This document shows positions 23,767 to 62,545 of a DNA stretch of 64,000 bases, one piece after another. A model generated the notes under the pieces. The model did not search any database. It worked only from the letters and a program-made list of their open reading frames with translations, and was not told the DNA's origin. Made by a program: the position numbers and the translations under genes. How positions within the stretch are numbered: position 1 is the stretch's first letter; every line of letters begins with the position of its first letter. Source of the stretch: Micromonosporaceae bacterium (GTDB taxonomy: Bacteria; Actinomycetota; Actinomycetes; Mycobacteriales; Micromonosporaceae); contig DASTMZ010000008.1 in the NCBI GenBank assembly GCA_035713725.1, forward strand, positions 8,280 to 72,279, read 5' to 3'.

Positions 23767-24411
23767 CTACCAGCGGCGCAGCCAGTGGAAGTGATCGTTC
23801 AACCAGTTGTGCAACACGGCGATCTCGTCAGTCTTGTTGGACAGCCATGACACCGCGCCGGTCATCGCGAGGATGCTGAGCACGATCGCGACCAGACCGA
23901 ACAGCACGCCGAGACCGACCAGGCTGTGTCCGGTGACGCCGGGGCGGCGTACCTCGTAGAACGCCAGGACGCCGAGCAGCACGGCGATGACGCCGGCCAG
24001 CAAACCGATCGGGGCGAGCAGGCCGGTGAGTGTCGCGGTGATCGCGAGCGTGCCGGCGATCAGTGACAGCGTGGCCGCGGCGCCGACGCGGGTCCACCCG
24101 GTCGTGGTGGCGACCTGCGCGGCGGCCGTGTCGCCATCATCCGAGTCGCCGAAGAACGAGTCCGTGCGATCGCCAGTCATGATGCGCCGGCCGGTGGTCA
24201 TGTCCGACTCGCTGTCCCGGTCGATGACGGTGGTATTCCCGCGCCGCCCGGCGAAGACGCGACCGCGCGACGGCCGATGCGTCGCCGGCTCGGCGCGCAT
24301 CGCGCCATCTGTCTGCCGCTGCGCGTCCGCCGGACCCATGGCACGCTCGCCGCGGTCGTCGACGATGGTCGCGGTCGGCTCGGTGTCGGTCGAAGATTGT
24401 CTGCCTACCAT
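23767..24411 (-). CDS. Hypothetical membrane protein (hydrophilic N-terminus, three C-terminal TM helices)
   Basis: ATG at 24411 is preceded by AGGAGG. C-terminal helices are LSLIAGTLAITATLTGLLAPIGLLAGVIAVLLGVLAF and LVGLGVLFGLVAIVLSILAM. The ORF-track 5' extension to 24771 is rejected. Confidence 0.6.
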   Translation of the reverse strand: MVGRQSSTDTEPTATIVDDRGERAMGPADAQRQTDGAMRAEPATHRPSRGRVFAGRRGNTTVIDRDSESDMTTGRRIMTGDRTDSFFGDSDDGDTAAAQVATTTGWTRVGAAATLSLIAGTLAITATLTGLLAPIGLLAGVIAVLLGVLAFYEVRRPGVTGHSLVGLGVLFGLVAIVLSILAMTGAVSWLSNKTDEIAVLHNWLNDHFHWLRRW

Positions 24412-24640
24412 CGCCTGTCGCCTCCTGACGACTCTTGTCGCGAGAACATGTGTCGCGAGGTGGTCGTGTCGTACCCGCATCCGTGGCGTTTCAACCACCC
24501 ACATCGCCAGTCGGTGCAAGGCGCCCAAGTTGACGCAAGTCGCCCAGGTGACTCCGTCCGGCGCGTCGCCCGCCGCACGTATTGCTACCTGCGCACATAC
24601 GAATGTGGACGGGCGGCCGATCGTTAACGAGTGCAGGGAC

Positions 24641-27600
24641 GTGCCCGGATTGGAGACACTAGGTGGCGTGACTGTCGACCCCACCCTCAACGAGCGCCCG
24701 ACCGCGCAAGCCGCGGCGGTCGACGCGGCGAGGGTGTGGGCCGACTCGCTCATCGACAAAACCGGTCGCAACGAGCTGCTCTACTGCAAGGATCGCGGCA
24801 AGATCCGGTTGGACAACGCGGATCCGGTAGCGGTGACCCGTCTCGTGCACGGCGAGCCGGTGCGCCTGCGCCAGCTGTTCCGCGACGAGGCGGCATACCA
24901 GAATGTCGCGAAGACCGCCGAGTCGATCCGGCGGCGCATCAAGGAATACGACGAGGAGCGCGGCGTACGCATCGGACGCCTGGTGTACGGGTTCGCGACC
25001 TGGGACGTCCCGGCGCCAAAGCAACCGCGCGACGCCGGGCCGGTATCGCCGGCGCCGGCCACTCCTGAAGTTGATTCTGCCGAGGCCGCGATCTCGGATG
25101 GCGCGGCTTCTGCGGCCGCGATCTCGGCTGACGCCGGCTCTCCGGAGGCTGCCCTTGCCGAGCCGGCGTCTCCTGAGGCTTTCTCTCCTGAGGCCGCGGT
25201 GTCCGACGGCACCCCGTCCGACGGCACCCCGTCCGAGGGCACCCCGTCCGAGAGCACGCCGTTCGCCACGTGGCGCACCGACGGCGCCCGTCGCGAGGTG
25301 CGCGCGCCGGTGCTGCTACGCGACATCACCATCATGCATCGGCCCGGCCGGGACGACTTCGATCTGCGTGCCGACCGGGACGCCGAGATCAGTCCCGTGC
25401 TGCTGCACTACCTGCGCTCGACGTTTGGCGTCGACATCGACCCGGATCTGATCGCGGACCTCAACGACGTCGTCGACGACCCGGAGCGCATCACTGAGGC
25501 GCTCGACAAGCTTGCCGGCCTTCTGGTCGACGCGCCGGAGTTCCGGATCGTGCCCGGCATGCTCATCGGCACGTTCCACTACGCCAAGCTCGCGATGCAC
25601 CAGGATCTGCTGGACAACGCGCCCGTCTTCGCCGCCAACGGCCTCGTCAGCGCACTGGCCGGCGACCTCGGAGCGATCGAGCGCATCCGGCGGCCGGTCG
25701 GCGAGGTCACGATCGACCTGCCGGACCGTACGCCGCCGGCCGACGAGTTCCTGGTGCTCGACGCCGACCCGTCGCAGAACTACGTGGTCAACGCCGCGCT
25801 CGCCGGCCGCAGCCTCGTCGTCCAGGGTCCGCCCGGCACCGGAAAGTCGCAGACGATCAGCAACCTGATCGCGACGTTCGCGGCAAACGGTCGAAGCGTG
25901 CTGTTCGTCGCCGAGAAGCGCGCCGCGATCGACGCGGTTCTCGGTCGGCTGACCGAGGCGGGGCTCGACGATCTGGTTCTCGACCTGCACGTGACGACGG
26001 CGAACCGGTCGAAGGCGTACGAGCAGTTCCGTGGCGTGATCGAGCGCGCGCGAACGGTCGACGCCGTCGACGGCGCGCGGCTACACGCCCGTCTCGACCG
26101 TACGCGTGCTGCGTTGCTGGCCCACGACGAGGCGATGCACTCGGTGCGCAAGCCGTGGGGGTTGTCCGTGCACGACGTGCAGTCGGCGATGCTCGAGGCA
26201 CCACCGGAGGCCACCCCCGACCTTCGACTGACCGCGGCGACGCTCGACGGGCTCGGCGCCGATCGCGCCGACCAGGTGCGTGTCGCGCTCGCCGAGCTGA
26301 TCGCGCTCGGTGGTCTCGCACCCGCACAGTCTCGCGGGCCGTGGGCTAACGCGCAGTTCCAGTCGGACGCCGCGGCGACCCGGGCGCGCGAGGCCGTCGA
26401 CGAGACGCGTGGCTGGCTGCCGCAACTGCGCGAGCGTTCCGCCGAGGTGGCGCAGGCGCTCGGGTTCGCCGACCCGGCAACGCCTGCCGAGGCGGCCGCG
26501 ATGACGCAGATCTGTCTTCGCACCGCCGCGGCGGCTGCACGGTGGCGGCCGGAGATCTACGACGAGGATCTCGAGCGCCTCGTGGCGGCGGTCGGTGGTG
26601 CGCCGGCGACGCGACCCGGCGCGCGCATCGGCTGGTGGGAGCGCCGGCGGCTACGCAAGCGCGCCAAAGCGCTGCGCCTTCGTGGCATGCGTGGCGATCT
26701 CGCCGCCGAGCTCAAGGAGGTTGCGTCGGTCGCGGCCGAGTGGTGGCGCATTTCGCGGGTACGACCGCCGGCGCAGCCCGATCTGTCCGCCCTCGCGGCG
26801 GCGAACGACGCGATGCGTACGCTGCTCGTGGAGTTGGGCGGTCTCCTCGCGGCCGGAGATCTCGCGGCGCGCGACTGGTCGTCGCTGTCGACGATGCTCG
26901 ACGAGCTGGCGCGGTTCCCGAACGCCGCGCACGCCGCGGCGCGCATCAATCGGGTGACCGAGCAGCTTCGCGGTTCGGGCATGGGCGACCTGCTCGATTG
27001 GCTCGGCCGGGTCGCCCCGACGTGGCCCGAAGAACGTCGGACAGCCTTCGCCATCGCTGCGTTCGACCACGTCTGGCACCGTGCCGTGTTCGAGCGGGTG
27101 GCACTCGGCGACGCGCACCTCGCGTCGTTCGATGGCACGGCGCATTCGGCGATCGCCGACGACTTCATCGCGACGGATCACGCGCACGCACAGACAAACC
27201 GCGCACGCGTTCGTCGGCGCGTTGCCGAGCGCCTGACCGAGGTGCGTACGCAACACGTCGAGCAGGACATCTACCTGAGCCGGGAGCTCACCAAGAAGCG
27301 CCGTTTGAAGCCGTTGCGCGACCTGGTTCGAGACGCTCCCGAGGTGCTGCTCGCGGCGAAGCCGTGCTGGGCGATGTCACCACTGCTGGTCTCGCAGTTG
27401 CTCCCGCCGGGACAACTCTTCGACGTCGTGGTGTTCGACGAAGCGAGCCAGGTGCAGCCGGCCGAGGCGCTGCCGTCGATGGCAAGGGCTCGCGCCGCGG
27501 TGATCGCCGGCGACTCGAAACAGTTGCCGCCGACCGCGTTCTTTGAGGCCGCGGTCGACGTCGAGGACGAAGTCGACCGCGATCTGCTCACCCAGGACGC

Positions 27601-29266
27601 GGAGTCGCTGCTTGACGCGTTCAACCGGGCACTCGGACCGGAGCTGGCCAGCGAGTTCTACCTCGGCTGGCACTACCGCAGCCGCGATGCGCGCCTGATC
27701 GCGCCGTCGAACGCGTTCTTCTACGGCGGTCGAATGGTCACGTTCCCGGGCACCGCGGTGGAACCACCGATGCGGTTCGTCGAAGTGGTCGGCGCCGAGT
27801 CCGCTGAGGGTACGTCGGCCGCCGAGGTACGCCGTGTGGTGGACCTGATCATCGAACACGCGCGCGAACGTCCGAGCGAGTCGCTGGGTGTCATCACGAT
27901 GGGCATTACGCACGCGACCCGGATCGAAGACGCGCTGCATCAACGGCTTCGCACCGTGCCGGGGCTAGGCGACTGGTTCGACGGAGACGGGTTCGAGCCG
28001 TTCTTCGTGAAGAACCTGGAACGCGTACAAGGCGACGAACGCGACGCGATCATCCTCGCCATCGGATATGGCAAGAGCCAGGGCCGCATGATGCATCGGT
28101 TTGGCCCGCTGAACAACGCGGGCGGCGAGCGACGGTTGAACGTCGCAATCACGCGCGCCAAGCACCGGATGACGGTGGTCGCCGGCTTCCGTCCGGACGA
28201 GGTCGACCCGTCGAAGTTGCGGTCCGAGGGTGCGCAGCGGCTCGTCGACTTCCTTCGGTACGCGGCAAGCGGTGCGACCATGACGCCGACGGTCGCCGAC
28301 GCGGCCGGATCGCCGAGCCCTGCCGTGGCACCGGACGCATCGCCGGATCCGTCCGCGGCGACGGGTGTCACGGTGCCGGGTGCTGTGCTTCCGGGTGCTG
28401 TGCTGCCGGGTGCGGTGCTGCCGGGTGCGGTGCTGCCGGGTGCGGCAGCCGACGGCGCCGGGCTCACGCCGTTCGCCGCGGATGCGCGCCGCCGGCTGGC
28501 GGCGCTCGGCATCGACGTCGCGTGCCACGTCGGCGTCGCCGGCTACTTCGTCGAAGTTGCCGCATTGCATCCGACGAGTTCGGGCCGGATGGTCATGGCG
28601 ATCGAGAGCGACGGGCTGACCTACCACGGCGCACCGACCACGCGCTCGCGCGATCGGCTGCGCCCCGAACAGCTGGAACGGCTCGGCTGGCGGTTCCATC
28701 GCGTCTGGTCGACGGACTGGGTCCGCAATCCCGACCGTGAGCTCGCGAAGATCCGGGCCGCGTACGAGGAAGCGGTGTATGCCGCCGACCGTGCGGACGG
28801 TCGCGTTACGTCAGACACGTTCGCAACAACCGATGCCGCCACGGCAGCAACAACCGACGCCGCAACAACCGACGCCGCAACAACCGATCTAGCCGCAGCC
28901 GACACAGCCGCGACCGACACAGCCGCGACCGACGCTGCGACAACGGCGAACGGCGCAGGAGAGATCGACGCGCTGCCGCCCGAGGTCGACGTGCTGCCCT
29001 CAGTCCTGCGCGGTCCGCGACCGGCGGCCAGCTTCGGCGCGCCGATCACGGAGATCTCCGACGACGAACTCGTCGCGATCGTCGAATGGATCGAGTCGGA
29101 CGGTCAGCTGCGCACCGACGTCGAGCTCAAGCGCGAGGCGCGCGACGAGCTAGGTCTGCGCCGCAACGGCGCGCGGATCGAGCGCCGGCTCGCCGCCGCG
29201 ATCGAGACGGTTCACGCGCGACGCGCCGCCGCGGATACACAACCCGACGGTGATCCGCGTCCCTGA
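24641..29266 (+). CDS. Large DUF4011 / SF1 (Upf1/DNA2-like) helicase / Vsr-PD-(D/E)xK-like endonuclease / DUF3320 protein
   Basis: N-terminal DUF4011-like segment (WADSLIDKTGRNELLYCKD). Walker A VVQGPPGTGKSQT (about 25826), motif II VVFDEASQV (about 27437), GDSKQLPPT, and motif VI NVAITRAKHRMTVV. Endonuclease-like MVMAIESDGLTYHG...RDRLRPEQLERLGWRFHRVWSTDW. The C-terminal ISDDELVAIVEWIESDG...ELGLRRNGARIERRL is DUF3320-like. Start is one of GTG 24641, TTG 24650 or GTG 24668. Confidence 0.85.
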   Translation: MPGLETLGGVTVDPTLNERPTAQAAAVDAARVWADSLIDKTGRNELLYCKDRGKIRLDNADPVAVTRLVHGEPVRLRQLFRDEAAYQNVAKTAESIRRRIKEYDEERGVRIGRLVYGFATWDVPAPKQPRDAGPVSPAPATPEVDSAEAAISDGAASAAAISADAGSPEAALAEPASPEAFSPEAAVSDGTPSDGTPSEGTPSESTPFATWRTDGARREVRAPVLLRDITIMHRPGRDDFDLRADRDAEISPVLLHYLRSTFGVDIDPDLIADLNDVVDDPERITEALDKLAGLLVDAPEFRIVPGMLIGTFHYAKLAMHQDLLDNAPVFAANGLVSALAGDLGAIERIRRPVGEVTIDLPDRTPPADEFLVLDADPSQNYVVNAALAGRSLVVQGPPGTGKSQTISNLIATFAANGRSVLFVAEKRAAIDAVLGRLTEAGLDDLVLDLHVTTANRSKAYEQFRGVIERARTVDAVDGARLHARLDRTRAALLAHDEAMHSVRKPWGLSVHDVQSAMLEAPPEATPDLRLTAATLDGLGADRADQVRVALAELIALGGLAPAQSRGPWANAQFQSDAAATRAREAVDETRGWLPQLRERSAEVAQALGFADPATPAEAAAMTQICLRTAAAAARWRPEIYDEDLERLVAAVGGAPATRPGARIGWWERRRLRKRAKALRLRGMRGDLAAELKEVASVAAEWWRISRVRPPAQPDLSALAAANDAMRTLLVELGGLLAAGDLAARDWSSLSTMLDELARFPNAAHAAARINRVTEQLRGSGMGDLLDWLGRVAPTWPEERRTAFAIAAFDHVWHRAVFERVALGDAHLASFDGTAHSAIADDFIATDHAHAQTNRARVRRRVAERLTEVRTQHVEQDIYLSRELTKKRRLKPLRDLVRDAPEVLLAAKPCWAMSPLLVSQLLPPGQLFDVVVFDEASQVQPAEALPSMARARAAVIAGDSKQLPPTAFFEAAVDVEDEVDRDLLTQDAESLLDAFNRALGPELASEFYLGWHYRSRDARLIAPSNAFFYGGRMVTFPGTAVEPPMRFVEVVGAESAEGTSAAEVRRVVDLIIEHARERPSESLGVITMGITHATRIEDALHQRLRTVPGLGDWFDGDGFEPFFVKNLERVQGDERDAIILAIGYGKSQGRMMHRFGPLNNAGGERRLNVAITRAKHRMTVVAGFRPDEVDPSKLRSEGAQRLVDFLRYAASGATMTPTVADAAGSPSPAVAPDASPDPSAATGVTVPGAVLPGAVLPGAVLPGAVLPGAAADGAGLTPFAADARRRLAALGIDVACHVGVAGYFVEVAALHPTSSGRMVMAIESDGLTYHGAPTTRSRDRLRPEQLERLGWRFHRVWSTDWVRNPDRELAKIRAAYEEAVYAADRADGRVTSDTFATTDAATAATTDAATTDAATTDLAAADTAATDTAATDAATTANGAGEIDALPPEVDVLPSVLRGPRPAASFGAPITEISDDELVAIVEWIESDGQLRTDVELKREARDELGLRRNGARIERRLAAAIETVHARRAAADTQPDGDPRP
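25205..25264 (+). repeat. 15 bp tandem repeat x4 in the helicase N-terminal linker (DGTPS DGTPS EGTPS ESTPF)
   Basis: gacggcaccccgtcc x2, gagggcaccccgtcc, gagagcacgccgttc. It is embedded in a wider low-complexity A/S/P/E linker at about 25070-25265. Confidence 0.9.
28376..28450 (+). repeat. 15 bp tandem repeat x5 between the helicase core and nuclease domain (PGAVL x4-5)
   Basis: ccgggtgctgtgctt ccgggtgctgtgctg ccgggtgcggtgctg ccgggtgcggtgctg ccgggtgcggcagcc. Confidence 0.9.
28824..28945 (+). repeat. Degenerate 12-15 bp repeats encoding a (T/A/D) tract between the nuclease domain and DUF3320
   Basis: TDAATAATTDAATTDAATTDLAAADTAATDTAATDAATT. Repeated acaaccgacgccgca and gacacagccgcgacc units. 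Confidence 0.8.
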
Positions 29267-37759: not shown

Positions 37760-37859
37760 GGGCTCTTCATACCGCCGCGGCCGGGCGCGTCGTCGCGGAT
37801 CCGGCGACATCGTTATGAGCGCCGTCCTGACGAGGCGCTGATGCGGGCGGCGGTGCGCC

Positions 37860-38708
37860 GTGACTCGTGACGACGAGCCCAACGGCGAGCCCGACAGCGA
37901 GACCGACAGGAAAGCCGGCAGCGAACCCGACGGCGAGCCCGGCAGCGAGCCCGGCAGCGGCGAGGCAGGGCGCAGACTGGGCGACGAGCCGGAACGTGGA
38001 TCGCGGGAAAGTCGACGGCGCTTCTCGGCGGCCGACGACATTCTCCGCGGCTTCAGCCGTGGCGGCCGACCGACCGGATATCGCGCCTTCTTCGCGACCA
38101 CGATCGCGGCGTCGTTGCTCATCTGGGATCTGGCATTCGCGCTCGGCGCCTATCACACGGTGTTCTACTACCGGCTGTTCCAGATCTTCGTCGTCTCGAC
38201 CGTGCTGTTGCTGGGTTCCATCGTGTTGCGGCGCGAGATGCGCGTCTGGTGGTGGACGCGCGTGGTGCTGTGCATTCCGGTGTTGTGGTTCGTACTCCGT
38301 GGCATCGCACCCATCTACCGATCCACCGGCCCGCTACACGTCATCGAACAAACGTTGACCTGGCTCACCCTGGCAACCGTGCCGTTGACGTTGTGGGCAC
38401 TCGTCCGCGTGATGGCACCCGGCCTATTCGAGATGCGCGCGCGGCGGGTCCGGGCGCTCGTGATCGTGATCATTTCAGTCGTAGCGATCGCCGGATTCGT
38501 CGTCGGCCAGTTCAACAGCCACTTCACGAACTGTCGCGACTACGTGGTCGCGGGCGACGACGAGCCGAGCCACTGCCGGCCCACACCGGGTACCCCGGCG
38601 CCCAGCCCACCGTCGCCCAGCCCACGGTCGCCCAGCCCACGGTCGCCCAGCCCTCCGTCGCCCAGCCCACCGTCGCCCAGCCCTCCGTCGCCCAGCCCCC
38701 AGCGATAA
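37860..38708 (+). CDS. Hypothetical membrane protein with repeat tracts at both termini
   Basis: 282 aa with about 5 TM helices in the core (LLIWDLAFALGAY, IFVVSTVLLLGSIVL, VVLCIPVLWFVL ...). The core is flanked by an acidic EPxG repeat and a C-terminal SPSPP repeat. Confidence 0.6.
   Translation: MTRDDEPNGEPDSETDRKAGSEPDGEPGSEPGSGEAGRRLGDEPERGSRESRRRFSAADDILRGFSRGGRPTGYRAFFATTIAASLLIWDLAFALGAYHTVFYYRLFQIFVVSTVLLLGSIVLRREMRVWWWTRVVLCIPVLWFVLRGIAPIYRSTGPLHVIEQTLTWLTLATVPLTLWALVRVMAPGLFEMRARRVRALVIVIISVVAIAGFVVGQFNSHFTNCRDYVVAGDDEPSHCRPTPGTPAPSPPSPSPRSPSPRSPSPPSPSPPSPSPPSPSPQR
37875..37958 (+). repeat. 12 bp tandem repeat x7 (EPNG EPDS ETDR KAGS EPDG EPGS EPGS)
   Basis: gagcccaacggc gagcccgacagc gagaccgacagg aaagccggcagc gaacccgacggc gagcccggcagc gagcccggcagc. 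Confidence 0.85.
38600..38704 (+). repeat. 15 bp tandem repeat x7 (SPSPP/SPSPR units) ending at the stop codon
   Basis: gcccagcccaccgtc / gcccagcccacggtc x2 / gcccagccctccgtc / gcccagcccaccgtc / gcccagccctccgtc / gcccagcccccagcg. Confidence 0.9.
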
Positions 38709-53093: not shown

Positions 53094-53438
53094 GACGCGT
53101 CTCCACACGGCACTGTCAAGGCGTTCACACAGCGTCGACAGCCACTCGACACGGCAGTGTCACATGGTCCGAGACGGCGCTCGGCAGCGCCCTGATGCGA
53201 CGACGGACAATGGCTCGGCCCGAGCTCTCCGGACGTCAGATACGCGGCGTAGTCCCAAGTAGACGGGCTGCGGTCGTCGTTACCGAGCCGTAATGGCGGC
53301 CTTGTTGATCTGTACCTTGTATACAGGATACGTTCGGGTTCCGGAACGGACCGGGAGGACCCGATGCCGCGTAAATTCCCAACCCCTCGACTCGATAACC
53401 CCCAACTCCATTTGCTTGAGCCGGGTCAGGGCACCCGG

Positions 53439-55070
53439 ATGACCCGAGGCGGGACCTTTAGAAGCCGGGCGATCAGAAGCATTGTCGTTCTCGCGACCCT
53501 TACCCTCGCGATGGCCGGATGCAGCTCCATTTCCTCGGGGTCAGGCAACTCCTCGTCCAACAACAACAAGGCAGCCAAGGCGGGCGGCACGCTCACCGTC
53601 GCGCTTGCGGGCGAGCCGGACGCGCTCGACCCGACCACCGGCCGTACGCTGGTCGGCCGCAGCGTCTTTACGTCTATTTGCGAGAAGCTCTACGACGTCG
53701 ACAGCAAGCTCGCGGTCGTGCCGCAGCTCGCGGCATCGTTGCCACAGTTCTCTTCGGACGGACTGACCGTCACGATCAAGCTGCGCTCCGGCGTCAAGTT
53801 CGCCGACGGCACGCCGATGGATGCCACCGCGGTCAAGACGAGCCTCGACCGTGATATGACATTGCCCGGCTCCGCGCGCCAGAGCGAACTCACCAGCATC
53901 GACAATGTGTCGGTGGCCGACCCGACCACCGTGACCATCAAGCTCAAGCAGCCGTTCACGCCGTTGACCGCGATCCTGGCCGACCGCGCCGGCATGGTGA
54001 TGTCGCCGACCGCGCTGCAGTCCGAGGGCGCGAACTTTGGCGAGCACCCGGTCTGCGTCGGCCCGTTCAAGTTCTCCACTCGCGTCGCGCAGGACCGCAT
54101 TGAGGTCGTCAAGGACCCGAACTACTACGACGCCAGCAAGGTCCTGCTGGACAAGATCGTTTACAAGATCATTGCCGACCCGGAGACCCGGTTCAACAAC
54201 TTGCAGTCCGGTGACGTCCAGGTGCTCGACACCGTGGCGGCCACCGATGTCGACGCGTTGAAAGCGGACTCGAAGCTCGAGTTGCTGAGCTCCGACTCGC
54301 TCGGCTATCAGGGCATCACGATCAACATCGGAAATGTCGACGGCGTCGGCAAGCCCGGTCGGGCGCTGCCAGCGAAGTTGGCCAGCCCGATGTCGGCGAA
54401 CGCTCAGGTGCGCCAGGCGTTCGAGCTGAGCCTCGACCGCGACGCGATCAACAAGGTCGTGTTCCGCGGTGAGTTCAGCCCGGCTTGTGGACCGATCAGC
54501 CCGGCGAGCCCATTCTCCACTCCGGAAGCTCAGGTGTGCCCGAAGCACGACCCGACCGCGGCGAAGGCGCTGTTGGCCTCGGCCGGCGTTTCGACGCCGG
54601 TGAAGGTCAGCATGATCATTGGCAACACGCCGGATGCGGAGCGATTGGGCCAGGCGATTCAGGCACAGGTGAAGGACGGCGGCTTCGACCTTCAGCTGGT
54701 GCCGGTCGAGTTCGCGGCATCGTTGGACCAGACCGACGCCGGTCAGTACCAGCTGTTCCAGATCGGTTGGTCGGGCCGCGTCGACCCGGACGGCAACATT
54801 GCGAACTTCGTCAGCACGCTCGGCTCGCAGAACAACGACGGCTACACCAACCCGTCCGTTGACACGCTGCTCGAGCAGGCGCGGTCGCAAGCCGATGTGG
54901 CCGCGCGCGCGAAGATCTACGGCCAGGTGATCACTCAGCTGCACCAGGACGTACCGATCATCTACCTGTACCGGCAGAAGAACTTCACCGGTGTTTCCCG
55001 CACGGTCGTGGGGGTTCAGGTGTTCGGCGACGGCCTGCTCCGATTCAAGACCGCGGGCTTCGCGGCCTGA
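53439..55070 (+). CDS. Peptide/nickel-type ABC transporter substrate-binding lipoprotein (family 5, DppA/OppA/GsiB-like)
   Basis: Signal peptide with lipobox AMAGC and family-5 SBP pattern (GGTLTVALAGEPDALDP..., LVPQLA, DPNYYD, GWSGRVDPDGN). The ORF-track start is 53364. Confidence 0.88.
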   Translation: MTRGGTFRSRAIRSIVVLATLTLAMAGCSSISSGSGNSSSNNNKAAKAGGTLTVALAGEPDALDPTTGRTLVGRSVFTSICEKLYDVDSKLAVVPQLAASLPQFSSDGLTVTIKLRSGVKFADGTPMDATAVKTSLDRDMTLPGSARQSELTSIDNVSVADPTTVTIKLKQPFTPLTAILADRAGMVMSPTALQSEGANFGEHPVCVGPFKFSTRVAQDRIEVVKDPNYYDASKVLLDKIVYKIIADPETRFNNLQSGDVQVLDTVAATDVDALKADSKLELLSSDSLGYQGITINIGNVDGVGKPGRALPAKLASPMSANAQVRQAFELSLDRDAINKVVFRGEFSPACGPISPASPFSTPEAQVCPKHDPTAAKALLASAGVSTPVKVSMIIGNTPDAERLGQAIQAQVKDGGFDLQLVPVEFAASLDQTDAGQYQLFQIGWSGRVDPDGNIANFVSTLGSQNNDGYTNPSVDTLLEQARSQADVAARAKIYGQVITQLHQDVPIIYLYRQKNFTGVSRTVVGVQVFGDGLLRFKTAGFAA

Positions 55071-55085
55071 TCGCATCGCCGGGGT

Positions 55086-55116
55086 GGTGGTCGCGAGCCC
55101 CGGGCTCGCGACCACC
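55086..55116 (+). terminator. Perfect 15 bp-arm palindrome after the binding-protein gene (attenuator/terminator hairpin)
   Basis: GGTGGTCGCGAGCCC c GGGCTCGCGACCACC, 16 bp after the stop. No T-tract follows. Confidence 0.5.
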
Positions 55117-55178
55117 ATCGGTTAGCTGGCAGATCGGTTAGCTGGCAGATCGGTCGCTGGCAGATCGGTCGCTGATAG
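55117..55178. repeat. 15-16 bp tandem repeat x4 between the binding-protein and permease genes
   Basis: atcggttagctggcag x2, atcggtcgctggcag, atcggtcgctgatag. It immediately follows the hairpin. Confidence 0.92.
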
Positions 55179-55217: not shown

Positions 55218-56174
55218 ATGGGCCGGTACGTGCTGCGTCGCCTCCTCGAGTCGGCGGTCACGTTCGTTCTTGTGACGATCGTGGTGTTCGTCGGTGTCCG
55301 CGCACTGCCCGGCGACCCGGCGCGAGCGCTTGCCGGCGAGGAGAGTGATCCGGCGTCGCTGGCACAGATCCGCAAGTCCTTCGGGCTCGACGAGCCGATT
55401 CCGCTGCAGTACGTCCACTATGTCGGCAACGCGCTGCACGGCGATCTCGGCCGGTCGTCGCGCACCGGGCTGCCGGTTGCTACCACGATTCGCCAGGCGC
55501 TGCCGGTCACGTTGCAACTGGCTATCTTCGCCGTTGTCATCGCGGCGCTGATCGGGCTCATCGCCGGTGTGGTTGCCGCCGTACGCCGGCGCAGCGCGGC
55601 CGAGTGGGCGGCGAACAGTGTGGCGTTGCTTGGCCTGTCCGTACCGAGCTTCTGGTTCGGGCTGATGGCGGTGCTAGTGTTCGCGATCGCGTACCCGATC
55701 CTGCCGGCATCCGGCTTCGTGTCGGTGTTCTCCGATCCGTGGCAGAGCTTCCGCCATTTGCTGATGCCGGCCGTGGTGCTCGGTTCCGCCCTCGCCGCCG
55801 TCATCATGCGGCAGACCAGGTCCGCGATGATCGAGGCGATGAGTACGGACTACATCCGGACCGCTCGGGCCAAGGGTCTCGGCGGCCGGCAGGTCATCTT
55901 CGGGCACGCGTTGCGCAACAGCCTGATCGTGGTCACAACGATCGTCGGTCTGCAGCTTGGCGCGCTGATCTCCGGTGCCGTGGTCACCGAGCAGATCTTC
56001 GTCCTACCCGGTTTCGGCAAGCTCACCATCGACGCCGTGTTCACGCGTGACTACCCGATGATCCAGGGCGTCGTACTCGTGACCGCGACCGCCTACATCG
56101 GCATCAACCTGCTCGTCGATCTGCTGTATAGCGTGATCGACCCGCGTGTCCGGGTGGGCGGTGCTGCGGTGTGA
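55218..56174 (+). CDS. Peptide ABC transporter permease (DppB/OppB type)
   Basis: MGRYVLRRLLESAVTFVLVTIVVF N-terminus and an EAA-like loop (DYIRTARAKGLGGRQVIFGHALRNSL). GAGGAGG RBS. Confidence 0.9.
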   Translation: MGRYVLRRLLESAVTFVLVTIVVFVGVRALPGDPARALAGEESDPASLAQIRKSFGLDEPIPLQYVHYVGNALHGDLGRSSRTGLPVATTIRQALPVTLQLAIFAVVIAALIGLIAGVVAAVRRRSAAEWAANSVALLGLSVPSFWFGLMAVLVFAIAYPILPASGFVSVFSDPWQSFRHLLMPAVVLGSALAAVIMRQTRSAMIEAMSTDYIRTARAKGLGGRQVIFGHALRNSLIVVTTIVGLQLGALISGAVVTEQIFVLPGFGKLTIDAVFTRDYPMIQGVVLVTATAYIGINLLVDLLYSVIDPRVRVGGAAV

Positions 56175-57061
56175 CGACCTTCGAACTTGTGACGCTCGAC
56201 GAGACCGCGGCCCGTCCGCAGGCCCTCGGTGGTCGGCGGGTGCTGCGCCGTCTGAGGCGCAACCCACTCGCGCTGGCCGGCCTTATCGTCGTCGTGGTCG
56301 CGGTCATCCTGGCGATCTTCGCGAATCAGATCGCACCGTTCGCGCCGGATCACACGAACTTCTCGGCTGCGCTGACACCGCCGTCTGCGAGGCACTGGTT
56401 CGGCACCGACGAGCTCGGTCGCGACCAGCTGTCCCGGGTGTTGTTCGGCCTGCGCGTCTCGCTGTCGGTCGCGGCGCTGTCGGTGGCGCTGTCGCTGGTC
56501 GTCGGCGTGCCACTCGGGCTGGCCGCGGGGTTCTACGGATTCCTCGACCCGCTCGTGTCGCGGGTCGCGGACACGCTGCTCGCATTCCCGTTCCTCATCC
56601 TCGCGGTCGGGCTCGCCGCGATTCTTGGCCCGTCGCTCGGTACGGCAACCATCGCGATCGGCGTCGGCAACGTACCCGCGATCATCCGCATCACGCGCAG
56701 CGAAGCATTGCGTCTGAGAGGCCTGGACTTCGTGGCGGCCGCGGTCGCGGACGGCGCGAGCGACTTTGTCGTGCTGCGACGCCACATCCTGCCCAACGCG
56801 GTGAACACACTGATCGTGCAGGCAACCGTGGCGGCACCGGCGGCGATCATCGGCGAGGCCGTACTGTCGTTCCTCGGTCTCGGCATCCGGCCGCCGAATC
56901 CGTCGCTCGGTGTGATGCTCGCCAGCGCGCAACCGTTGTTCCGTGACGGCCCTTGGCTCGCCGTGCTGCCCGGCATCTGCATCGTTATCGTCACGCTCGG
57001 CCTGAATCTGTTGGGCGATGGGCTGCGCGACGCCCTCGATCCGCGGGAGTCGCCGCGATGA
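56171..57061 (+). CDS. Peptide ABC transporter permease (DppC/OppC type)
   Basis: HWFGTDELGRDQLSRV motif and an EAA-like loop (DFVAAAVADGASDFVVLRRHILPNAV). Overlaps the upstream stop. Confidence 0.9.
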   Translation: MTTFELVTLDETAARPQALGGRRVLRRLRRNPLALAGLIVVVVAVILAIFANQIAPFAPDHTNFSAALTPPSARHWFGTDELGRDQLSRVLFGLRVSLSVAALSVALSLVVGVPLGLAAGFYGFLDPLVSRVADTLLAFPFLILAVGLAAILGPSLGTATIAIGVGNVPAIIRITRSEALRLRGLDFVAAAVADGASDFVVLRRHILPNAVNTLIVQATVAAPAAIIGEAVLSFLGLGIRPPNPSLGVMLASAQPLFRDGPWLAVLPGICIVIVTLGLNLLGDGLRDALDPRESPR

Positions 57062-58212
57062 CCGCCGGCAACGGAGTGCCCGAGCAATCGGCTCGAGACT
57101 GGACCATCGAGAGCGTGCCGTCCGTGGAGAGCGTGCCGTCCGCGGAAAGCGTGCCGTCCGCGGAAAGCGTGCCGTCCGTCGGGCGCGTGCCGTCTGTGGA
57201 GAGCGTGCCGTCGAGCCTGTCCGGGCGCGAGACATTACTCTCGGTACGGGACCTGTCAGTGCGGTTCCGGACCGAAGACGGTCCGGTGCTCGCCGTCGAC
57301 GCGGTGTCCTTCGACGTCGGTCAACGAGAGGTGCTTGCGTTGGTCGGCGAGTCGGGCTGCGGCAAGAGCGTGACGGCGATGGCGCTCACACGTCTGCTGC
57401 CGAGCAACGCCAACATCTCCGGTGCGGTGAAGCTCGGCAGCCGATCGTTGCTCGATCTGTCCGAGCCGGACCTTCGGGACGTACGCGGTAAAGACATCGC
57501 GTACGTCTTCCAGGAGCCGATGACGTCACTGAACCCGGTGCTCACCGTCGGGCGTCAGATCGGCGAGGTGCTGCGTCGACACCAGCAGATGCGCGGAGCG
57601 GCGGTGATTCGTCGGGCTACCGAACTGCTGGACCTGGTCGGGATCCCGCTGCCGGACCGTCGCGTACGGGAATATCCACACCAGCTGTCCGGCGGCATGC
57701 GGCAGCGCGTGATGATCGCGATGGCGGTCGCGTGCCGACCGAAGCTGCTGGTCGCAGACGAGCCGACCACCGCCCTCGACGTGACCGTACAGGCGGGCAT
57801 CCTCGACGTCCTGCGTGATCTGCGCGCCGAGATCGGCACGGCGGTGCTGCTCATCACGCACGACCTGGGAGTCGTTGCCGACCTCGCGGATCGCGTCGTG
57901 GTCATGTACGCCGGCCGCACCATCGAGGAGGCCGGCACCGACGTGTTGTTCGCCCGCCACAGCCATCCGTACACCCGCGGGCTGCTGGAGGCCGTGCCGA
58001 ACCCACAGCGACGCGCAGACGGTGGCCTGCGGGAGATCCCTGGTCGCGTGCCGACCATGCGCAACTCGCCGGCCGCGTGCACATTCGCGGCACGGTGCGA
58101 GTTCGCCGACGAGCAATGCAGTCGCGAACGGCCGGCGTTGCTGCCCGGACCGGCCGGCCATCCGGTGCGCTGCTTCCATCCGTTGCCGGCGACCGCGGAA
58201 GCCCTGACATGA
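57058..58212 (+). CDS. Peptide ABC transporter ATP-binding protein (DppD/OppD type) with a repeat-bearing N-terminal leader
   Basis: Walker A GESGCGKSV, signature LSGGMRQRVMIAMAV, Walker B LLVADEPTTALD and an oligopeptide C-terminal domain (HPYTRGLL). ATGA overlap with the permease. The repeat frame has GC at every third position, which supports translation. Confidence 0.88.
   Translation: MTAGNGVPEQSARDWTIESVPSVESVPSAESVPSAESVPSVGRVPSVESVPSSLSGRETLLSVRDLSVRFRTEDGPVLAVDAVSFDVGQREVLALVGESGCGKSVTAMALTRLLPSNANISGAVKLGSRSLLDLSEPDLRDVRGKDIAYVFQEPMTSLNPVLTVGRQIGEVLRRHQQMRGAAVIRRATELLDLVGIPLPDRRVREYPHQLSGGMRQRVMIAMAVACRPKLLVADEPTTALDVTVQAGILDVLRDLRAEIGTAVLLITHDLGVVADLADRVVVMYAGRTIEEAGTDVLFARHSHPYTRGLLEAVPNPQRRADGGLREIPGRVPTMRNSPAACTFAARCEFADEQCSRERPALLPGPAGHPVRCFHPLPATAEALT
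57106..57213 (+). repeat. 18 bp tandem repeat x6 in the dppD-like 5' region (ESVPSV ESVPSA ESVPSA ESVPSV GRVPSV ESVPSS)
   Basis: atcgagagcgtgccgtcc gtggagagcgtgccgtcc gcggaaagcgtgccgtcc x2 gtcgggcgcgtgccgtct gtggagagcgtgccgtcg. Confidence 0.92.
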
Positions 58213-58298
58213 GCGGCCGTGACATGAGTGGCACTGACATGAGTGGCCGTGACATGAGTGGCACTGACATGAGTGGCACTGACATGAACGGCCGTGAA
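58209..58298 (+). repeat. 15 bp tandem repeat x6, each unit beginning with an in-frame ATG (MSGRD MSGTD MSGRD MSGTD MSGTD MNGRE)
   Basis: atgagcggccgtgac atgagtggcactgac atgagtggccgtgac atgagtggcactgac atgagtggcactgac atgaacggccgtgaa. Unit 1 carries the ATGA stop/start overlap. Confidence 0.95.
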
Positions 58299-59267
58299 GC
58301 GAAGACCGTGCTTGAGGTCGTCGACCTCGTCAAACACTTCGGTCCGGTGCGAGCCGTGGACGGCGTCAGCCTGACCGTCGCGGAGGGCGAGGTGGTCGGC
58401 CTCGTGGGGGAGTCCGGCAGCGGCAAGAGCACGCTCGGCCGCTGCGTGACGCGGCTCGTCCCGGTCACCGCCGGAGAAGTGCACATCAACGGTACGGACA
58501 TCTCCCGCCTCAGCCGTCACCGCCTGCGGCCGTTGCGCCGTGACTTCAACATCGTGTTCCAGGATCCGGCGTCGTCGTTGAATCCGCGGATGACGGTCGG
58601 CGACATCATCTCGGAGCCGTTGCGGCTGCACCGGGTCGGCACGCGCGTGACGCAGGAGCAGCGCGTCACGGAGCTGCTCGACCAGGTCGGCCTGCAGGCA
58701 GAGGTGTCGCGTCGGTATCCCCACGAGCTGTCTGGTGGGCAACGTCAGCGGGTGAGCCTCGCTCGGGCACTCTCGGCCGGGCCATCGCTGCTGGTGGCCG
58801 ACGAGCCGACGTCGGCGCTGGACGTCTCGGTGCAGGCCGCCGTGCTGAACCTGATCGGTCGATTGCAAGCCGACCTCGGCTTCGCGTGCCTGTTCGTGAC
58901 GCACGACCTTGCCGCTGTCGAATTTCTCGCACAACGCGTAGCCGTGATGTATCTCGGCGTACTCGTCGAGGTCGCCGACCGTGAGGCGCTGTTCGCGGCG
59001 CCGCGGCATCCGTACACTCAGGCGTTGTTGTCGGCGGCGCCGATTCCGGACCCGGTGGTTCAGCGCGGCCGTCAGCGGATTGTGCTGTCCGGCGAGGTAC
59101 CCAGCCCGATCGACCCGCCGTCCGGTTGCCGCTTCCACCCGCGGTGCCCCGTCGCGGTACCGGAGTGTGCAACCGTTGTTCCGGCCTTGCGCCCGGTCGG
59201 ACCGTCTGGTGAACTCGTCGCCTGCCACCTTGTGAACGACGACGGGACCGGCCCACGGCTAACCTAG
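58209..59267 (+). CDS. Peptide ABC transporter ATP-binding protein (DppF/OppF type) with a repeat-bearing N-terminal leader
   Basis: Walker A GESGSGKST, signature LSGGQRQRVSLARAL, Walker [25 protein letters not shown] overlap with the upstream gene. The true start may be any of six in-frame ATGs. Confidence 0.88.
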   Translation: MSGRDMSGTDMSGRDMSGTDMSGTDMNGREAKTVLEVVDLVKHFGPVRAVDGVSLTVAEGEVVGLVGESGSGKSTLGRCVTRLVPVTAGEVHINGTDISRLSRHRLRPLRRDFNIVFQDPASSLNPRMTVGDIISEPLRLHRVGTRVTQEQRVTELLDQVGLQAEVSRRYPHELSGGQRQRVSLARALSAGPSLLVADEPTSALDVSVQAAVLNLIGRLQADLGFACLFVTHDLAAVEFLAQRVAVMYLGVLVEVADREALFAAPRHPYTQALLSAAPIPDPVVQRGRQRIVLSGEVPSPIDPPSGCRFHPRCPVAVPECATVVPALRPVGPSGELVACHLVNDDGTGPRLT

Positions 59268-59294
59268 ACGACTGCGGGGTGATCGACCGTGGGC

Positions 59295-59370
59295 GATCGA
59301 TGGTGTGTGCTGGATCGTGGTGTGTGCTGGATCGTGGTGTTGGCTGGATCGCGGGGTTGAGCTGGATCGG
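59295..59370. repeat. 17-18 bp tandem repeat, about 4.5 copies (GGATCGTGGTGTGTGCT core), downstream of the dppF-like gene
   Basis: GGATCG recurs at 59312, 59329, 59346 and 59364, with a degenerate first copy at 59295. Confidence 0.88.
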
Positions 59371-59427
59371 CTAGCGGGCAGCATCGCAGGCCATGCCGGA
59401 CAGCCGGGGCTGGCGGGTGTGGGGAAC

Positions 59428-59500
59428 ATGGGCCGTGGGTGTATGGGCCGTGGGTATGTGAGCCGTGGGTATGTGAGCCGTGGGTATATGAGCCGTGGGA
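59428..59500. repeat. 13-15 bp tandem repeat x5 (ATGKGMGCCGTGGGT) just upstream of ggt
   Basis: atgggccgtgggtgt atgggccgtgggt atgtgagccgtgggt atgtgagccgtgggt atatgagccgtggga. It ends 5 bp before the GAGGAG RBS of ggt. Confidence 0.92.
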
Positions 59501-59519
59501 AATTGAGGAGAGCGAACCG

Positions 59520-61370
59520 ATGAACCCGACCAGACCGCAGCTAGCGGGGACGTTCGGAATGGTCGCATCGTCGCACTGGTTGGCGTCCGCGGCCGGCATG
59601 GCGGAACTTGAGCAGGGCGGCAACGCGTTCGACGCGGTCGTCGCAGCCGGGTTCACCCTTCAGGTCGTCGAGCCGCATCTGAACGGTCCGGGCGGAGAGG
59701 TGCCGATCATCTTCGCGCGGTCCGACGATGACGCGCCGACCGTGCTATGTGGGCAGGGTCCGGCGCCGAGCGGCGCGACCATCGCGCACTACCGCGACCT
59801 CGGCCTCGAGCTGATCCCCGGCGCCGGCCCGCTTGCGGCCGCGGTTCCCGGCGCGGTCGAGGCGTGGCTCACGTTATTGCGCGATCACGGTACGCGGCGG
59901 CTCGCGGACGTACTCGCGTATGCGATCTCGTATGCAGACCGCGGTCATCCACTGCTGCCACGCGCCGCCGGCGCGATCAACCAGGTCGCGAAGTTGTTCG
60001 CGAACGACTGGACGACGTCGGCCGAAGTGTTCCTGGCCGGTGACGCGGCACCCGGCCCCGGCACGCTGTTCCGCAATCCTGCGCTAGCCGAGACGTACCG
60101 GCGTCTGGTCGCGGCCGAGACAGCGGCGAGCGGCGGTCGCGAGGCGGGCATCGACGCGGCCCGACGGGCATGGCGCGAGGGCTTCGTCGCGGAGGCGGTC
60201 GACGCGTTCGCCCAACGCCCGTTCCGGCACCCGCACGGCGGGCACCACACCGCCGTGATCGGTGGCGCCGATCTGGCCGCGTTCACCGCCGAATACGAAG
60301 CGACGACGTCGCACCCGTTCAGGGATGTGGTCGTACACAAGACGTCCGGTTGGGGACAAGGCCCGGTTCTGTTGCAACAGCTCGCGATGCTGGACGGGTA
60401 CGACGACGCGGCGATAGATCCGAGTACGCCGGACGGCGTGCACGTCGCGGTCGAGGTAACCAAGCTCTCGTTCGCTGACCGTGACGCGTGGTACGGCGAC
60501 GCCGTACCGCCGCCTCTGCACGCCTTGCTGGACAAGGGGTATACGGAATCGCGCCGTGCTCTCGTCGGAGACGACGCGAGCCTCGTACTCCGTCCCGGCG
60601 CACCCGACGGACAATCGCCGCGTCTGCCCGCGCTGCTTGCGCACATGCTCAATGCCCCGAACCCCTCCGAGGCAGCCCCCGATCCGGCGGTCACTGAGCC
60701 AGCCGAACGTCCGACGCCCGAGGCTGCGGTCCCGACGCAGGGGACACTCGGCGAGCCGACCGTGGAGCGCGACGGTATTGCGCGCGGCGACACGTGCCAT
60801 GTCGACGTCGTCGACCGCTGGGGCAACATCGTGTCCGCGACACCGAGCGGCGGTTGGTTGCAGAGCTCGCCGGTGATTCCGCCGTTGGGCTTCCCGCTGG
60901 GTACGCGTCTGCAGATGTGTTGGCTCGAGGAGGGACTGCCGGCGAGCCTGACGCCTGGCCGGCGGCCGCGCACCACGCTCAGCCCGACGATGATCTACCG
61001 TGACGGGCGGCCAGCGATCGCCTGCGGTACGCCCGGCGGCGACCAACAAGATCAGTGGCAGCTCGTGTTCCTGTTGTCGCATCTGGTTCGCAGACTGCCG
61101 CTCCAGGCCGCCATCGAGGCGCCGAGTTGGCATAGCAACGCGGTGGCAAGCTCCTTCTTCCCACGGGACTCGCGGCCCGGCGAACTCGTCATGGAGGGTC
61201 GATGGGGCGGTCCCGCCGTGGACGCGCTGCGGCGCCGTGGACACCGTGTGGTCGTCGCGGAGCCGTGGTCCCTTGGACGCCTGGCCGCCGTGAGCCGAGA
61301 CCCGGACACCGGCCTGATGCAAGCGGCCGCGGATCCGCGCGGCCGGCAGGCGTACGCCGTCGGACGCTAG
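59520..61370 (+). CDS. ggt: Gamma-glutamyltransferase-family protein
   Basis: 616 aa. N-terminal GMVASSHWLASAAGMAELEQGGNAFDAVVAAGFTLQVVEPHLNGPGG and a nucleophile region GDTCHVDVVDRWGN (Thr). GAGGAG RBS lies 9 nt upstream. Confidence 0.88.
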   Translation: MNPTRPQLAGTFGMVASSHWLASAAGMAELEQGGNAFDAVVAAGFTLQVVEPHLNGPGGEVPIIFARSDDDAPTVLCGQGPAPSGATIAHYRDLGLELIPGAGPLAAAVPGAVEAWLTLLRDHGTRRLADVLAYAISYADRGHPLLPRAAGAINQVAKLFANDWTTSAEVFLAGDAAPGPGTLFRNPALAETYRRLVAAETAASGGREAGIDAARRAWREGFVAEAVDAFAQRPFRHPHGGHHTAVIGGADLAAFTAEYEATTSHPFRDVVVHKTSGWGQGPVLLQQLAMLDGYDDAAIDPSTPDGVHVAVEVTKLSFADRDAWYGDAVPPPLHALLDKGYTESRRALVGDDASLVLRPGAPDGQSPRLPALLAHMLNAPNPSEAAPDPAVTEPAERPTPEAAVPTQGTLGEPTVERDGIARGDTCHVDVVDRWGNIVSATPSGGWLQSSPVIPPLGFPLGTRLQMCWLEEGLPASLTPGRRPRTTLSPTMIYRDGRPAIACGTPGGDQQDQWQLVFLLSHLVRRLPLQAAIEAPSWHSNAVASSFFPRDSRPGELVMEGRWGGPAVDALRRRGHRVVVAEPWSLGRLAAVSRDPDTGLMQAAADPRGRQAYAVGR

Positions 61371-61426: not shown

Positions 61427-62545
61427 CTACGCCTTCCGAGTCACGAGGTGCCGTGCGCCGTTGGACCGCGCGCCGGAACTGACCGAGCTGCGCAGGCGGT
61501 GGTCATCGACCGCGTCCCGATCAATCACGTCCGGATCAACCGTGTCCCGAGCGGCTGCGGATTGGTCGAAGGACGGACCGTCGGCACCAGCGTTCGAATG
61601 GTCGGCTGCATAGCTCAACGCGATCTGTCGGGCCGCCCACACATGCGTGTGCGCGGCGTGGCCGGCTGCTTCCGCGTCGCCGGCACTGATCGCGATCGCC
61701 AGCGCCTCGTGCTCTCGCCAGGAGTGCGGTGCGCGGCGTAGCGCAGTTTGCCGGTAGACCCACTCCAAGCGGTCGTGCAGCGAATCCATCATGCTGACCA
61801 GCAGCGCGTTGCCGGACATGCGGCAGACTTCGGCGTGGAACGCGGTGTTCAACCTCGCGAGCTCGGTCACCGACGCTGTTAGACCTGACGGCGTAAGACC
61901 TGACGGCGCAACACCTGACGACTCGGCAGCCGATTTCCCAGCGGCAGCCGACTTCCCAGCGACGTCCGAGTGCGCTCTGCCGGTCGAGTGCGCTCTGCCG
62001 GTCGAGTGCGGTCTGCCGGCCGAGTGCGCTCTCGGTGACGCAGTGGGCGCCGCGGCATCGGATACGCCGTTCTCAAGGGCTGCGAGACTGCCGGTCTCGG
62101 TCGCAGCGGTTTCGGCGACGATGCTCTGCAGCCGCGCGGCGCCGGCGGCGTCGATGCGCTGCGCGGCGAGTTGCGCGCTCAACACCTCAAGCGCGAGTCG
62201 CACCTCGAACAGGTTCTCGACGTCCTGCGTGGAAATGCTTGCCACCACGGCACCGCGTCGCGCGTGGGCGATCAGGAAACCCTCGCGCTCGAGTACGCGA
62301 ATCGCCTCGCGCACCGGGTTTCGGGACACGCCGAAGTCCAGCGCGAGCCGATCCTCGGTCAGACGGTGCCCTGGCGGGTATTCGCACTCGATGATCCGCC
62401 GACGCAGCTCCGCCACGACCTTGTCGCGCAGCGGCAAATGGTCCGCGCCGATCGTCGCGTTTTGGGGCATCGTTGCATTTTGGGGCGTTGCATTTTGGGG
62501 CGTTGCATCTTGGGGCACTGTCGCCTGGGGCACCACAGTCACCAC
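61427..62545 (-). CDS. GntR-family transcriptional regulator (FadR/FCD type) carrying repeat insertions
   Basis: Winged HTH (LTEDRLALDFGVSRNPVREAIRVLEREGFL) and FCD helices (ENLFEVRLALEVLSAQLAA ... FHAEVCRMSGNALLVSMMDSLHDRL) split by a repeat tract of about 70 aa. An alternative start is ATG at 62470. Confidence 0.85.
   Translation of the reverse strand: MVTVVPQATVPQDATPQNATPQNATMPQNATIGADHLPLRDKVVAELRRRIIECEYPPGHRLTEDRLALDFGVSRNPVREAIRVLEREGFLIAHARRGAVVASISTQDVENLFEVRLALEVLSAQLAAQRIDAAGAARLQSIVAETAATETGSLAALENGVSDAAAPTASPRAHSAGRPHSTGRAHSTGRAHSDVAGKSAAAGKSAAESSGVAPSGLTPSGLTASVTELARLNTAFHAEVCRMSGNALLVSMMDSLHDRLEWVYRQTALRRAPHSWREHEALAIAISAGDAEAAGHAAHTHVWAARQIALSYAADHSNAGADGPSFDQSAAARDTVDPDVIDRDAVDDHRLRSSVSSGARSNGARHLVTRKA
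61878..62035 (-). repeat. Three adjacent tandem arrays (15 bp x3, 18 bp x2, 18 bp x4) inserted inside the FCD domain coding region
   Basis: gttagacctgacggc gtaagacctgacggc gcaacacctgacgac; tcggcagccgatttccca gcggcagccgacttccca; four cgagtgcgctctgccggt-type units. These encode SGLTP SGLTP, AGKSAA x2 and HSTGRA x3-4. Confidence 0.9.
62454..62531 (-). repeat. 15 bp tandem repeat x5 at the gntR 5' end (PQNAT units)
   Basis: gttgcattttggggc x2, gttgcatcttggggc, actgtcgcctggggc, preceded by gtcgcgttttggggc. Confidence 0.9.

Follow-up and report, generated by a model that had tools for sequence, protein, structure and literature searches.

In the 64-kb window analysed here (64,000 nt of contig DASTMZ010000008.1, from a Micromonosporaceae bacterium), the two ATPase genes of an Opp/Dpp-type ATP-binding cassette (ABC) importer, dppD and dppF, are joined by six tandem 15-bp units, each of which opens with an ATG in the dppF frame. 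Our analyses argue that this array is probably a neutral or nearly neutral in-frame minisatellite, produced by tandem duplication across the ATGA overlap of the two genes. According to this explanation, a 15-bp segment spanning the 4-nt dppD/dppF overlap would have been duplicated in tandem, repeatedly. Since the stop of dppD and the start of dppF both lie in the duplicated segment, each copy has a dppF-frame ATG and a dppD-frame TGA. Translation of dppD would terminate at the first TGA as before, leaving DppD unchanged, while termination-reinitiation would start DppF at the first ATG. In that case the five extra units would encode 25 hydrophilic residues, (MSG[R/T]D)n, ahead of the first ATPase beta-strand, at a site that would tolerate extra sequence. 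The array would be one outcome of a propensity, shared across the lineage, for repeats of 12-19 bp to arise and change in length; they would persist where they are harmless, at protein ends, in linkers and in non-coding DNA. This richness in repeats is a more interesting result than the junction array itself.

A 15-bp array of start codons spans the dppD-dppF junction

Pfam searches recognised an Opp/Dpp-type importer operon in the window and upheld the assignment of the two genes to dppD and dppF that a first-pass annotation, made from the DNA letters, had proposed. Both partner genes are co-directional and encode ABC_tran plus oligo_HPY ATPases of one importer. The dppD start itself overlaps the dppC stop in an ATGA. 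The genes of the operon are the following:

53364-55070, SBP_bac_5 (family-5 solute-binding protein), by Pfam
55218-56174, first BPD_transp_1 permease, by Pfam
56171-57061, second BPD_transp_1 permease, by Pfam
57058-58212, + strand, dppD-like ATPase of 384 amino acids (aa), ABC_tran and oligo_HPY, by Pfam and open reading frame (ORF)
58209-59267, + strand, dppF-like ATPase, ORF of 352 aa from the first ATG (the favoured start), ABC_tran and oligo_HPY, by Pfam and ORF

The features at the junction, all on the + strand, are these:

58197-58201, GGAAG, weakly resembling a Shine-Dalgarno sequence and 7 nt ahead of the first ATG, not above background by duplex energy
58201-58208, partial leading unit GCCCTGAC in the last dppD codons, by Tandem Repeats Finder (TRF) and sequence
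58209-58298, six 15-bp tandem units, by sequence, TRF and frame translation
58210-58212, dppD TGA stop, overlapping the first array ATG, by sequence and ORFs
58284-58286, last array ATG, the start chosen by automatic gene callers for the 327-aa product P0001 of the protein collection
58299-58301, GCG where the ancestral start codon stood; sister contigs carry ATG there (ATGAAGACCGTGCTCGAG), from the relatives' junctions

The units run head to tail along the + strand of the window from 58209 to 58298, in the order ATGAGCGGCCGTGAC (58209), ATGAGTGGCACTGAC (58224), ATGAGTGGCCGTGAC (58239), ATGAGTGGCACTGAC (58254), ATGAGTGGCACTGAC (58269) and ATGAACGGCCGTGAA (58284), and are translated in the dppF frame as MSGRD MSGTD MSGRD MSGTD MSGTD MNGRE. 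Unit number, in-frame ATGs and encoded peptide all agreed with the first-pass annotation, which was also right that the first ATG overlaps the upstream stop (ATGA, with TGA at 58210-58212), that the ATPase core begins at about 58300 (homology to relatives starts at DppF residue 32-35, VLEVVDL, at about 58302-58311) and that gain or loss of units never breaks the frame, 15 being divisible by 3. The tract is not homogeneous: four sequence variants occur among the six 15-nt units, and unit 6 (58284) is the most diverged. TRF placed the array at 58201-58297 with a period of 15 (5.8 copies, 88% matches, score 132) and reported it again with a period of 30 (94% matches, score 147), the scores for this array spanning 132-152. 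The TRF start lies 8 nt before 58209 on account of the partial unit GCCCTGAC at 58201-58208, inside the 3' end of dppD, so the extent first given for the array holds for the six units and omits this fragment. The dppD tail (...EALT*) is similar to the unit-encoded VALT*. The presence of a partial unit inside the dppD end indicates that the duplicated segment covered the dppD end as well as the dppF start.

Every unit has a TGA in both remaining + strand frames, and the dppF frame alone is open through the array, which forms a ladder of starts in one frame and a ladder of stops in the other two. Markov-shuffled versions of the window yielded few arrays (1.55 with a TRF score of at least 50 per 64 kb), so that the junction array is not a product of chance.

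Unit number at the junction differs between lineages

The genome-contig scan covered genomes of species other than that of the window, with metagenome-assembled genomes (MAGs) at 82-84% identity as best matches, and the closest relatives found in the searches were actinobacterial MAGs. Their junctions formed a graded series. In L001-L003 (82-84% protein identity), a single ATGA or GTGA overlap is followed by 3-4 residues and then LEVVDL. L089 (92% protein identity) and L088 (97% protein identity) also have a single ATGA, and their products start with MTAVLE and MKAVLE, respectively. One extra 15-bp unit, ATGAGCGGCCCTGCG, is present in the sister lineage (L085, L086 and L087; ~95% DNA identity; labelled 'Micromonosporaceae bacterium' at NCBI, GCA_035263025.1), where it precedes the ancestral ATGAAGACCGTGCTCGAG (ATGAAG). 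The window and L081-L084 have six units, and the window carries GCG in place of the ancestral ATG. Pairwise alignment of the window with the sister lineage left a clean gap of 75 nt (5 x 15) at the junction. Copy number at the junction evolves between lineages, and a succession of 0, 1 and 6 units is the most parsimonious order of the alleles. An exact scan of metagenome contigs with the 3' flank GGCCGTGAAGCGAAGACCGTGCT returned only an unrelated chance match (L091) and no further alleles.

The 4-nt ATGA/GTGA overlap at the first start codon was kept in the 0-, 1- and 6-unit alleles alike. This uniform retention suggests that coupling matters for this subunit pair, and dppF translation is predicted, from the conserved overlap between genes for two subunits of one complex, to depend on that of dppD. 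The homologous ATPases are fused in Mycobacterium tuberculosis and form a heterodimer in the DppBCDF and OppBCDF structures of Escherichia coli. Both OppD (Rv1281c) and DppD (Rv3663c) of M. tuberculosis are fused double ATPases with extra sequence before the second ATPase domain, which amounts to ~50 residues in Rv1281c, and DppF homologues differ at the N-terminus. Together, these fusions and the variable N-termini indicate that extra sequence at this end of DppF is tolerated in nature.

We then examined contigs almost identical to the window, which were found via P0001 (327 aa, called from the last ATG). Since this call is independent of the number of upstream units, the lookup was unbiased for copy number. 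All four contigs, ~99.9% identical to the window and from four other JGI samples, carried exactly six identical units, in a sample that is small and consists of assembled sequence. The only indels among them were two single-unit changes, both in neighbouring non-coding arrays:

59295-59369, + strand, 17-bp intergenic array between dppF and the gamma-glutamyltranspeptidase gene downstream of it; one unit more in three near-identical contigs
59428-59499, + strand, 15-bp array directly ahead of the gamma-glutamyltranspeptidase start; shorter by one unit in one near-identical contig

Arrays in this organism change on short timescales, and the junction array was unchanged in the four-contig sample. 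The copy-number variation expected by the first-pass annotation thus exists between lineages (0, 1 or 6 extra units) but was absent among the four near-identical contigs. That annotation had also named what would speak against it, a single fixed start downstream of the array combined with invariant copy number; there is no downstream ATG, and copy number differs between lineages. The second of the two variable arrays ends ~20 nt before the gamma-glutamyltranspeptidase ATG (59520, preceded by GAGGAG), and several of its units hold ATGTGA start-stop pairs. This array is a better candidate than the junction array for an effect on expression.

DppF most likely starts at the first ATG of the array

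The array is followed by no further ATG. An in-frame GTG is present at 58308, but a start there would cut into the conserved N-terminus, and no homologue begins at that point. Initiation is therefore almost certainly at an array ATG. A start at the upstream GTG at 58077 was rejected: it would overlap dppD by 135 nt, and no homologue reaches so far.

The Shine-Dalgarno duplex energy with the 16S tail ranged from -3.0 to -3.8 kcal/mol at the six array ATGs against a background mean of -4.5, so that none of the six showed a match above background; the four other operon starts, scored at the start codon, gave -6.9 to -15.8 kcal/mol. Distances of the array ATGs from the dppD stop are -4, +11, +26, +41, +56 and +71 nt. 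Termination-reinitiation requires an overlap or a very short distance, and ~20 nt nearly abolishes it in reporters of E. coli and Haloferax volcanii (PMC10666635). Units 3-6, at 26-71 nt, are thus unlikely to serve as extra coupled starts. The first ATG (58209), used via termination-reinitiation, is the most likely start of DppF, and the second is a possible minor site. The array is predicted to be translated, given the ATGA overlap, the distance dependence of reinitiation and internal ATGs that have no Shine-Dalgarno support; DppF would then most likely have 352 aa and begin with a repeat extension, (MSGxD)n, of 25 residues, start choice, translation and neutrality all being deduced. No protein in the collection spans the array, the highest query coverage being 94%.

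The junction array misleads gene callers. On identical junction DNA of the sister lineage they were inconsistent, giving 327 aa in one case (L085, 1159) and 322 aa in another (L086, 3001), and the N-termini of database proteins from this lineage are probably misplaced systematically at arrays.

The window and its lineage are rich in short tandem arrays

To place the junction array in context, TRF arrays were counted over the whole window. With a score of at least 50, 42 merged arrays occur in 64 kb (0.66 per kb, 3.9% of bases); half of them have a period of 15, the mode, and 93% fall within 12-19 bp. A comparison set of 411 kb, drawn from GC-rich loci that surround homologous operons in other taxa, contained 0.13 arrays per kb, 45% of them with periods of 12-19 bp. 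The window therefore exceeds these loci ~5-fold overall and 24-fold for arrays with at least 3 copies. Density fell with distance from the window, as estimated from 5-21 kb per relative (arrays per kb):

window, 0.66
sister contigs (L085, L094), 0.58-0.99
next relatives (L089, L092), 0.24-0.32
Allorhizocola (L093), 0.06

The sister lineage (L085, L086 and L094) is thus as rich in arrays as the window. The array units are mutually unrelated across the window, and no second copy of the junction unit was found in the 64 kb with up to 3 mismatches. The junction array is thus not a dispersed element, and a mobile element of that kind was ruled out as its source. Reading frame filters the arrays: the period is divisible by 3 in all 22 genic arrays and in 9 of the 20 non-coding ones (Fisher p = 4e-5). 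Generation centred near 15-16 bp combined with such a filter would explain the dominance of 15. Genic arrays encode peptides rich in S, T, P, D and G and lie at protein ends and linkers, and most of the 42 arrays are nowhere near a start codon.

Comparison of the region with related contigs placed almost all changes in length at short tandem arrays. Over 5-7 kb aligned with the sister lineage, all 8-9 indels were at tandem arrays, were about one or more units long and went in both directions; those among the 99.9%-identical contigs were likewise confined to tandem arrays, with lengths near whole units. It is possible, and we put it forward tentatively, that an active, lineage-specific process of 12-19 bp tandem duplication is reshaping intergenic DNA as well as the linkers and ends of proteins on the chromosome of an uncultured soil actinobacterial lineage, as a bacterial counterpart of the repeats of Borgs. 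The replacement of the ancestral dppF start by an array that supplies every ATG would be one of its outcomes, and a distinct molecular cause, for example a peculiarity of replication or repair, would lie behind the narrow range of unit lengths. Literature searches on repeat-rich Micromonosporaceae or Actinomycetota, which were partial in coverage and no proof of novelty, returned no account of such a pattern.

Alternative explanations of the junction array

The first-pass annotation had regarded the array as a plausible expression-tuning or phase-variable element. In its most explicit form, ribosomes ending at the dppD stop would restart at any of the six ATGs, the DppF:DppD ratio or the mixture of N-termini would depend on copy number, and tuning would be heritable through slippage. 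A stop followed directly by six ATGs in near-identical context, the 0/1/6 differences across lineages and the single-unit shifts of other arrays between near-identical contigs would all fit this proposal; moreover, initiation must use the array now that the ancestral ATG is lost, and an array that stayed at six units as its neighbours drifted would be consistent with selection on copy number. We nevertheless consider it improbable. Because the first start sits within the ATGA overlap in every allele, copy number leaves the coupling site fixed relative to the first usable start and the coupling geometry constant. Units 3-6 lie 26-71 nt off, where reinitiation is nearly gone already at ~20 nt (PMC10666635), and the internal ATGs have no Shine-Dalgarno support, energies being at background. 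All four near-identical contigs were unchanged as well. An effect of copy number on expression is not borne out by these observations. Phase variation fares no better, as an in-frame 15-nt unit is unable to turn the gene on or off. The genome-wide excess of arrays, moreover, accounts for this one without a function.

Another explanation keeps the same origin by duplication and lets DppF begin with the ATG of unit 6 (58284). Under it, the five units before that ATG would form an untranslated spacer of 72 nt, and dppF would no longer be coupled to dppD, or independent initiation would have taken the place of coupling. The 327-aa product called by pipelines in the window and in four other contigs agrees with it, and the last unit, besides being the most diverged, matches by position the one unit found in the sister lineage. 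Initiation that relies on no strong Shine-Dalgarno sequence is common among actinobacterial genes, which also counts in its favour. Still, we find this start doubtful: its Shine-Dalgarno energy (-3.7 against the background mean of -4.5) is no better than that of the other array ATGs, the gene callers disagree on identical DNA, and the relatives uniformly retain the 4-nt overlap. A unit divisible by 3 and a stop-free dppF frame would be needed only if the upstream ATGs were used, a weak argument given that 15 bp is the commonest non-coding period too. An assembly or sequencing artefact that inflated a single junction into a repeat is extremely improbable. Metagenome assemblies can mis-resolve repeats, and some related contigs do end at or near another array; yet the identical 90-bp array was recovered in four independent assemblies of four other samples, and orthologous arrays of differing copy number are present in JGI, ENA and NCBI assemblies of the sister lineage. 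The junction array is, in addition, shorter than a typical short read.

The neutral or nearly neutral minisatellite that we favour has to face several points that weigh against it. The first ATG is a predicted start of DppF, and automatic gene callers place the start at the last unit in the window and in the four other contigs, giving 327 aa. Disorder of the DppF extension is suggested by composition only: an AlphaFold2 model from a 26-sequence alignment (mean predicted local distance difference test score, pLDDT, 38; predicted template modelling score, pTM, 0.32) was unusable, and no structural statement was drawn from it. Met codons are unusual in amino-acid tandem repeats, and in the repeats of Borgs ATG ranks with the most depleted codons (PMC9879509). 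With the ancestral ATG lost, the array is the sole source of ATG starts and no longer dispensable. Finally, the static junction array, where two neighbours varied, could reflect selection for six copies and not neutrality.

Other features of the operon and the window

A second array lies in the other ATPase gene of the transporter:

57109-57212, + strand, 18 bp x 5.8, encoding (ESVPSV)n in the DppD N-terminus, by TRF, ORF and alignment

It sits ~50 nt past the ATGA-overlapped dppD start and is 54-60 nt shorter in sister lineages, so that both transporter ATPases would bear N-terminal repeat extensions; it seems to have come from the process that made the junction array. Upstream in the operon, a perfect 14-bp GC-rich hairpin (GGTGGTCGCGAGCC...GGCTCGCGACCACC) is found at 55083-55118, downstream of the binding-protein stop codon and immediately ahead of a tandem array, and may act as an mRNA stabiliser or as an attenuator setting the ratio of binding protein to transporter. 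Two metagenome contigs (L096 and L097) have an end in, or right at, the 15/16-bp array that separates dppA from dppB (window 55107-55174); assemblies may break at such arrays, possibly from length differences within samples.

A scan of 57000-59700 for promoters and terminators found no site, and an internal promoter arising from the repeated TGACA was rejected on that basis. When 58180-58330 was folded as RNA, z was -2.0 and 10 of 200 shuffles folded equally well, a signal too weak for a structure to be claimed.

The gene content of the window is chromosome-like (Lon, G6PD, cytochrome bd and transporters; 68% GC). Arrays were also conspicuous in three other genes. The GntR/FCD regulator at 61427-62545 (- strand) has five, among them (PQNAT)n at the N-terminus (62471-62516) and a run of three neighbouring ones between the DNA-binding and FCD domains, where the sister lineage is 81 nt shorter. 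A 1768-aa protein (23960-29266) with AAA_11/AAA_12 helicase and REase_MTES_1575 nuclease domains contains three separate 15-bp arrays. The ORF at 37842-38708, a putative gene with no Pfam match, carries a 12 bp x 7.2 array near its N-terminus and a 15 bp x 6.9 proline/serine repeat near its C-terminus.

Significance and comparison with known systems

Taken alone, the junction array is a curiosity, in which tandem duplication over an ATGA overlap spares the upstream protein and would add a harmless N-terminal extension to the downstream one. It is also a natural test piece for the choice of start after termination, offering six ATGs in near-identical context at 15-nt steps. If the pattern of the window is true genome-wide, this lineage would offer a tractable bacterial system in which to study how repeats arise and create disordered protein segments.

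The junction array belongs to the class of coding variable-number tandem repeats (VNTRs), or amino-acid tandem repeats. Like other coding minisatellites, it consists of head-to-tail units divisible by 3 that keep an open frame, differs in copy number between lineages, occupies a permissive protein end and presumably originated by slippage or tandem duplication. Unlike them, its unit spans a stop/start overlap, repeating a start in one frame and stops in the other two; its host is a cytoplasmic ATPase and not a surface protein, and its translation is predicted. Contingency loci are a poorer match. The unit is 15 nt and not ~1-8 nt, changes in its number leave the frame intact, no promoter-like site was found, and no length variation was seen in the four contigs. 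At lic1 of Haemophilus influenzae, several ATGs lie upstream of a CAAT tract whose 4-nt unit shifts the frame and selects the ATG, resulting in on, weak or off expression. Both loci pair several candidate starts with a slippage-prone 5' repeat, but the 15-nt unit never changes the frame.

With ATGA translational coupling (PMC6728339, PMC10666635), the junction shares the 4-nt overlap between co-directional genes, its conservation in relatives (as ATGA or GTGA) and partners that are subunits of one complex. It differs in that six copies of the overlap motif are present, and no described case of such a six-fold-copied ATGA overlap was found in the literature searches made. Mycobacterial interspersed repetitive units (MIRUs), for example that of senX3-regX3, are 40-100 bp repeats of one family at ~40-50 loci, which may have been inserted (Supply et al. 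1997, via PMC3184786). They share with the junction array an actinobacterial operon, a tandem arrangement between co-transcribed genes and a variable number, and the ends of MIRU ORFs overlap the flanking genes, which keeps polycistronic reading; they are the closest specific analogue. The junction unit departs from MIRUs in size and dispersal: it is 15 bp long, unique in the window, derived from the junction and continuous with dppF. Its first copy overlaps the dppD stop and the units run on into dppF, not forming separate small ORFs.

The repeats of Borgs invite comparison at another scale. Borgs are AT-rich archaeal extrachromosomal elements (PMC9879509), whereas the window is 68% GC bacterial DNA with housekeeping-type genes, and ATG is strongly depleted in their repeats while it heads every unit of the junction array. 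Both, however, hold many independent, unrelated arrays, genic as well as intergenic, of which the genic ones are divisible by 3 and the intergenic ones mostly are not. Borgs also share with the lineage studied here a turnover of copy number within populations, hydrophilic peptides that look disordered and far fewer arrays in relatives (PMC9879509). Altogether, these repeats are the closest parallel to the genome-scale pattern.

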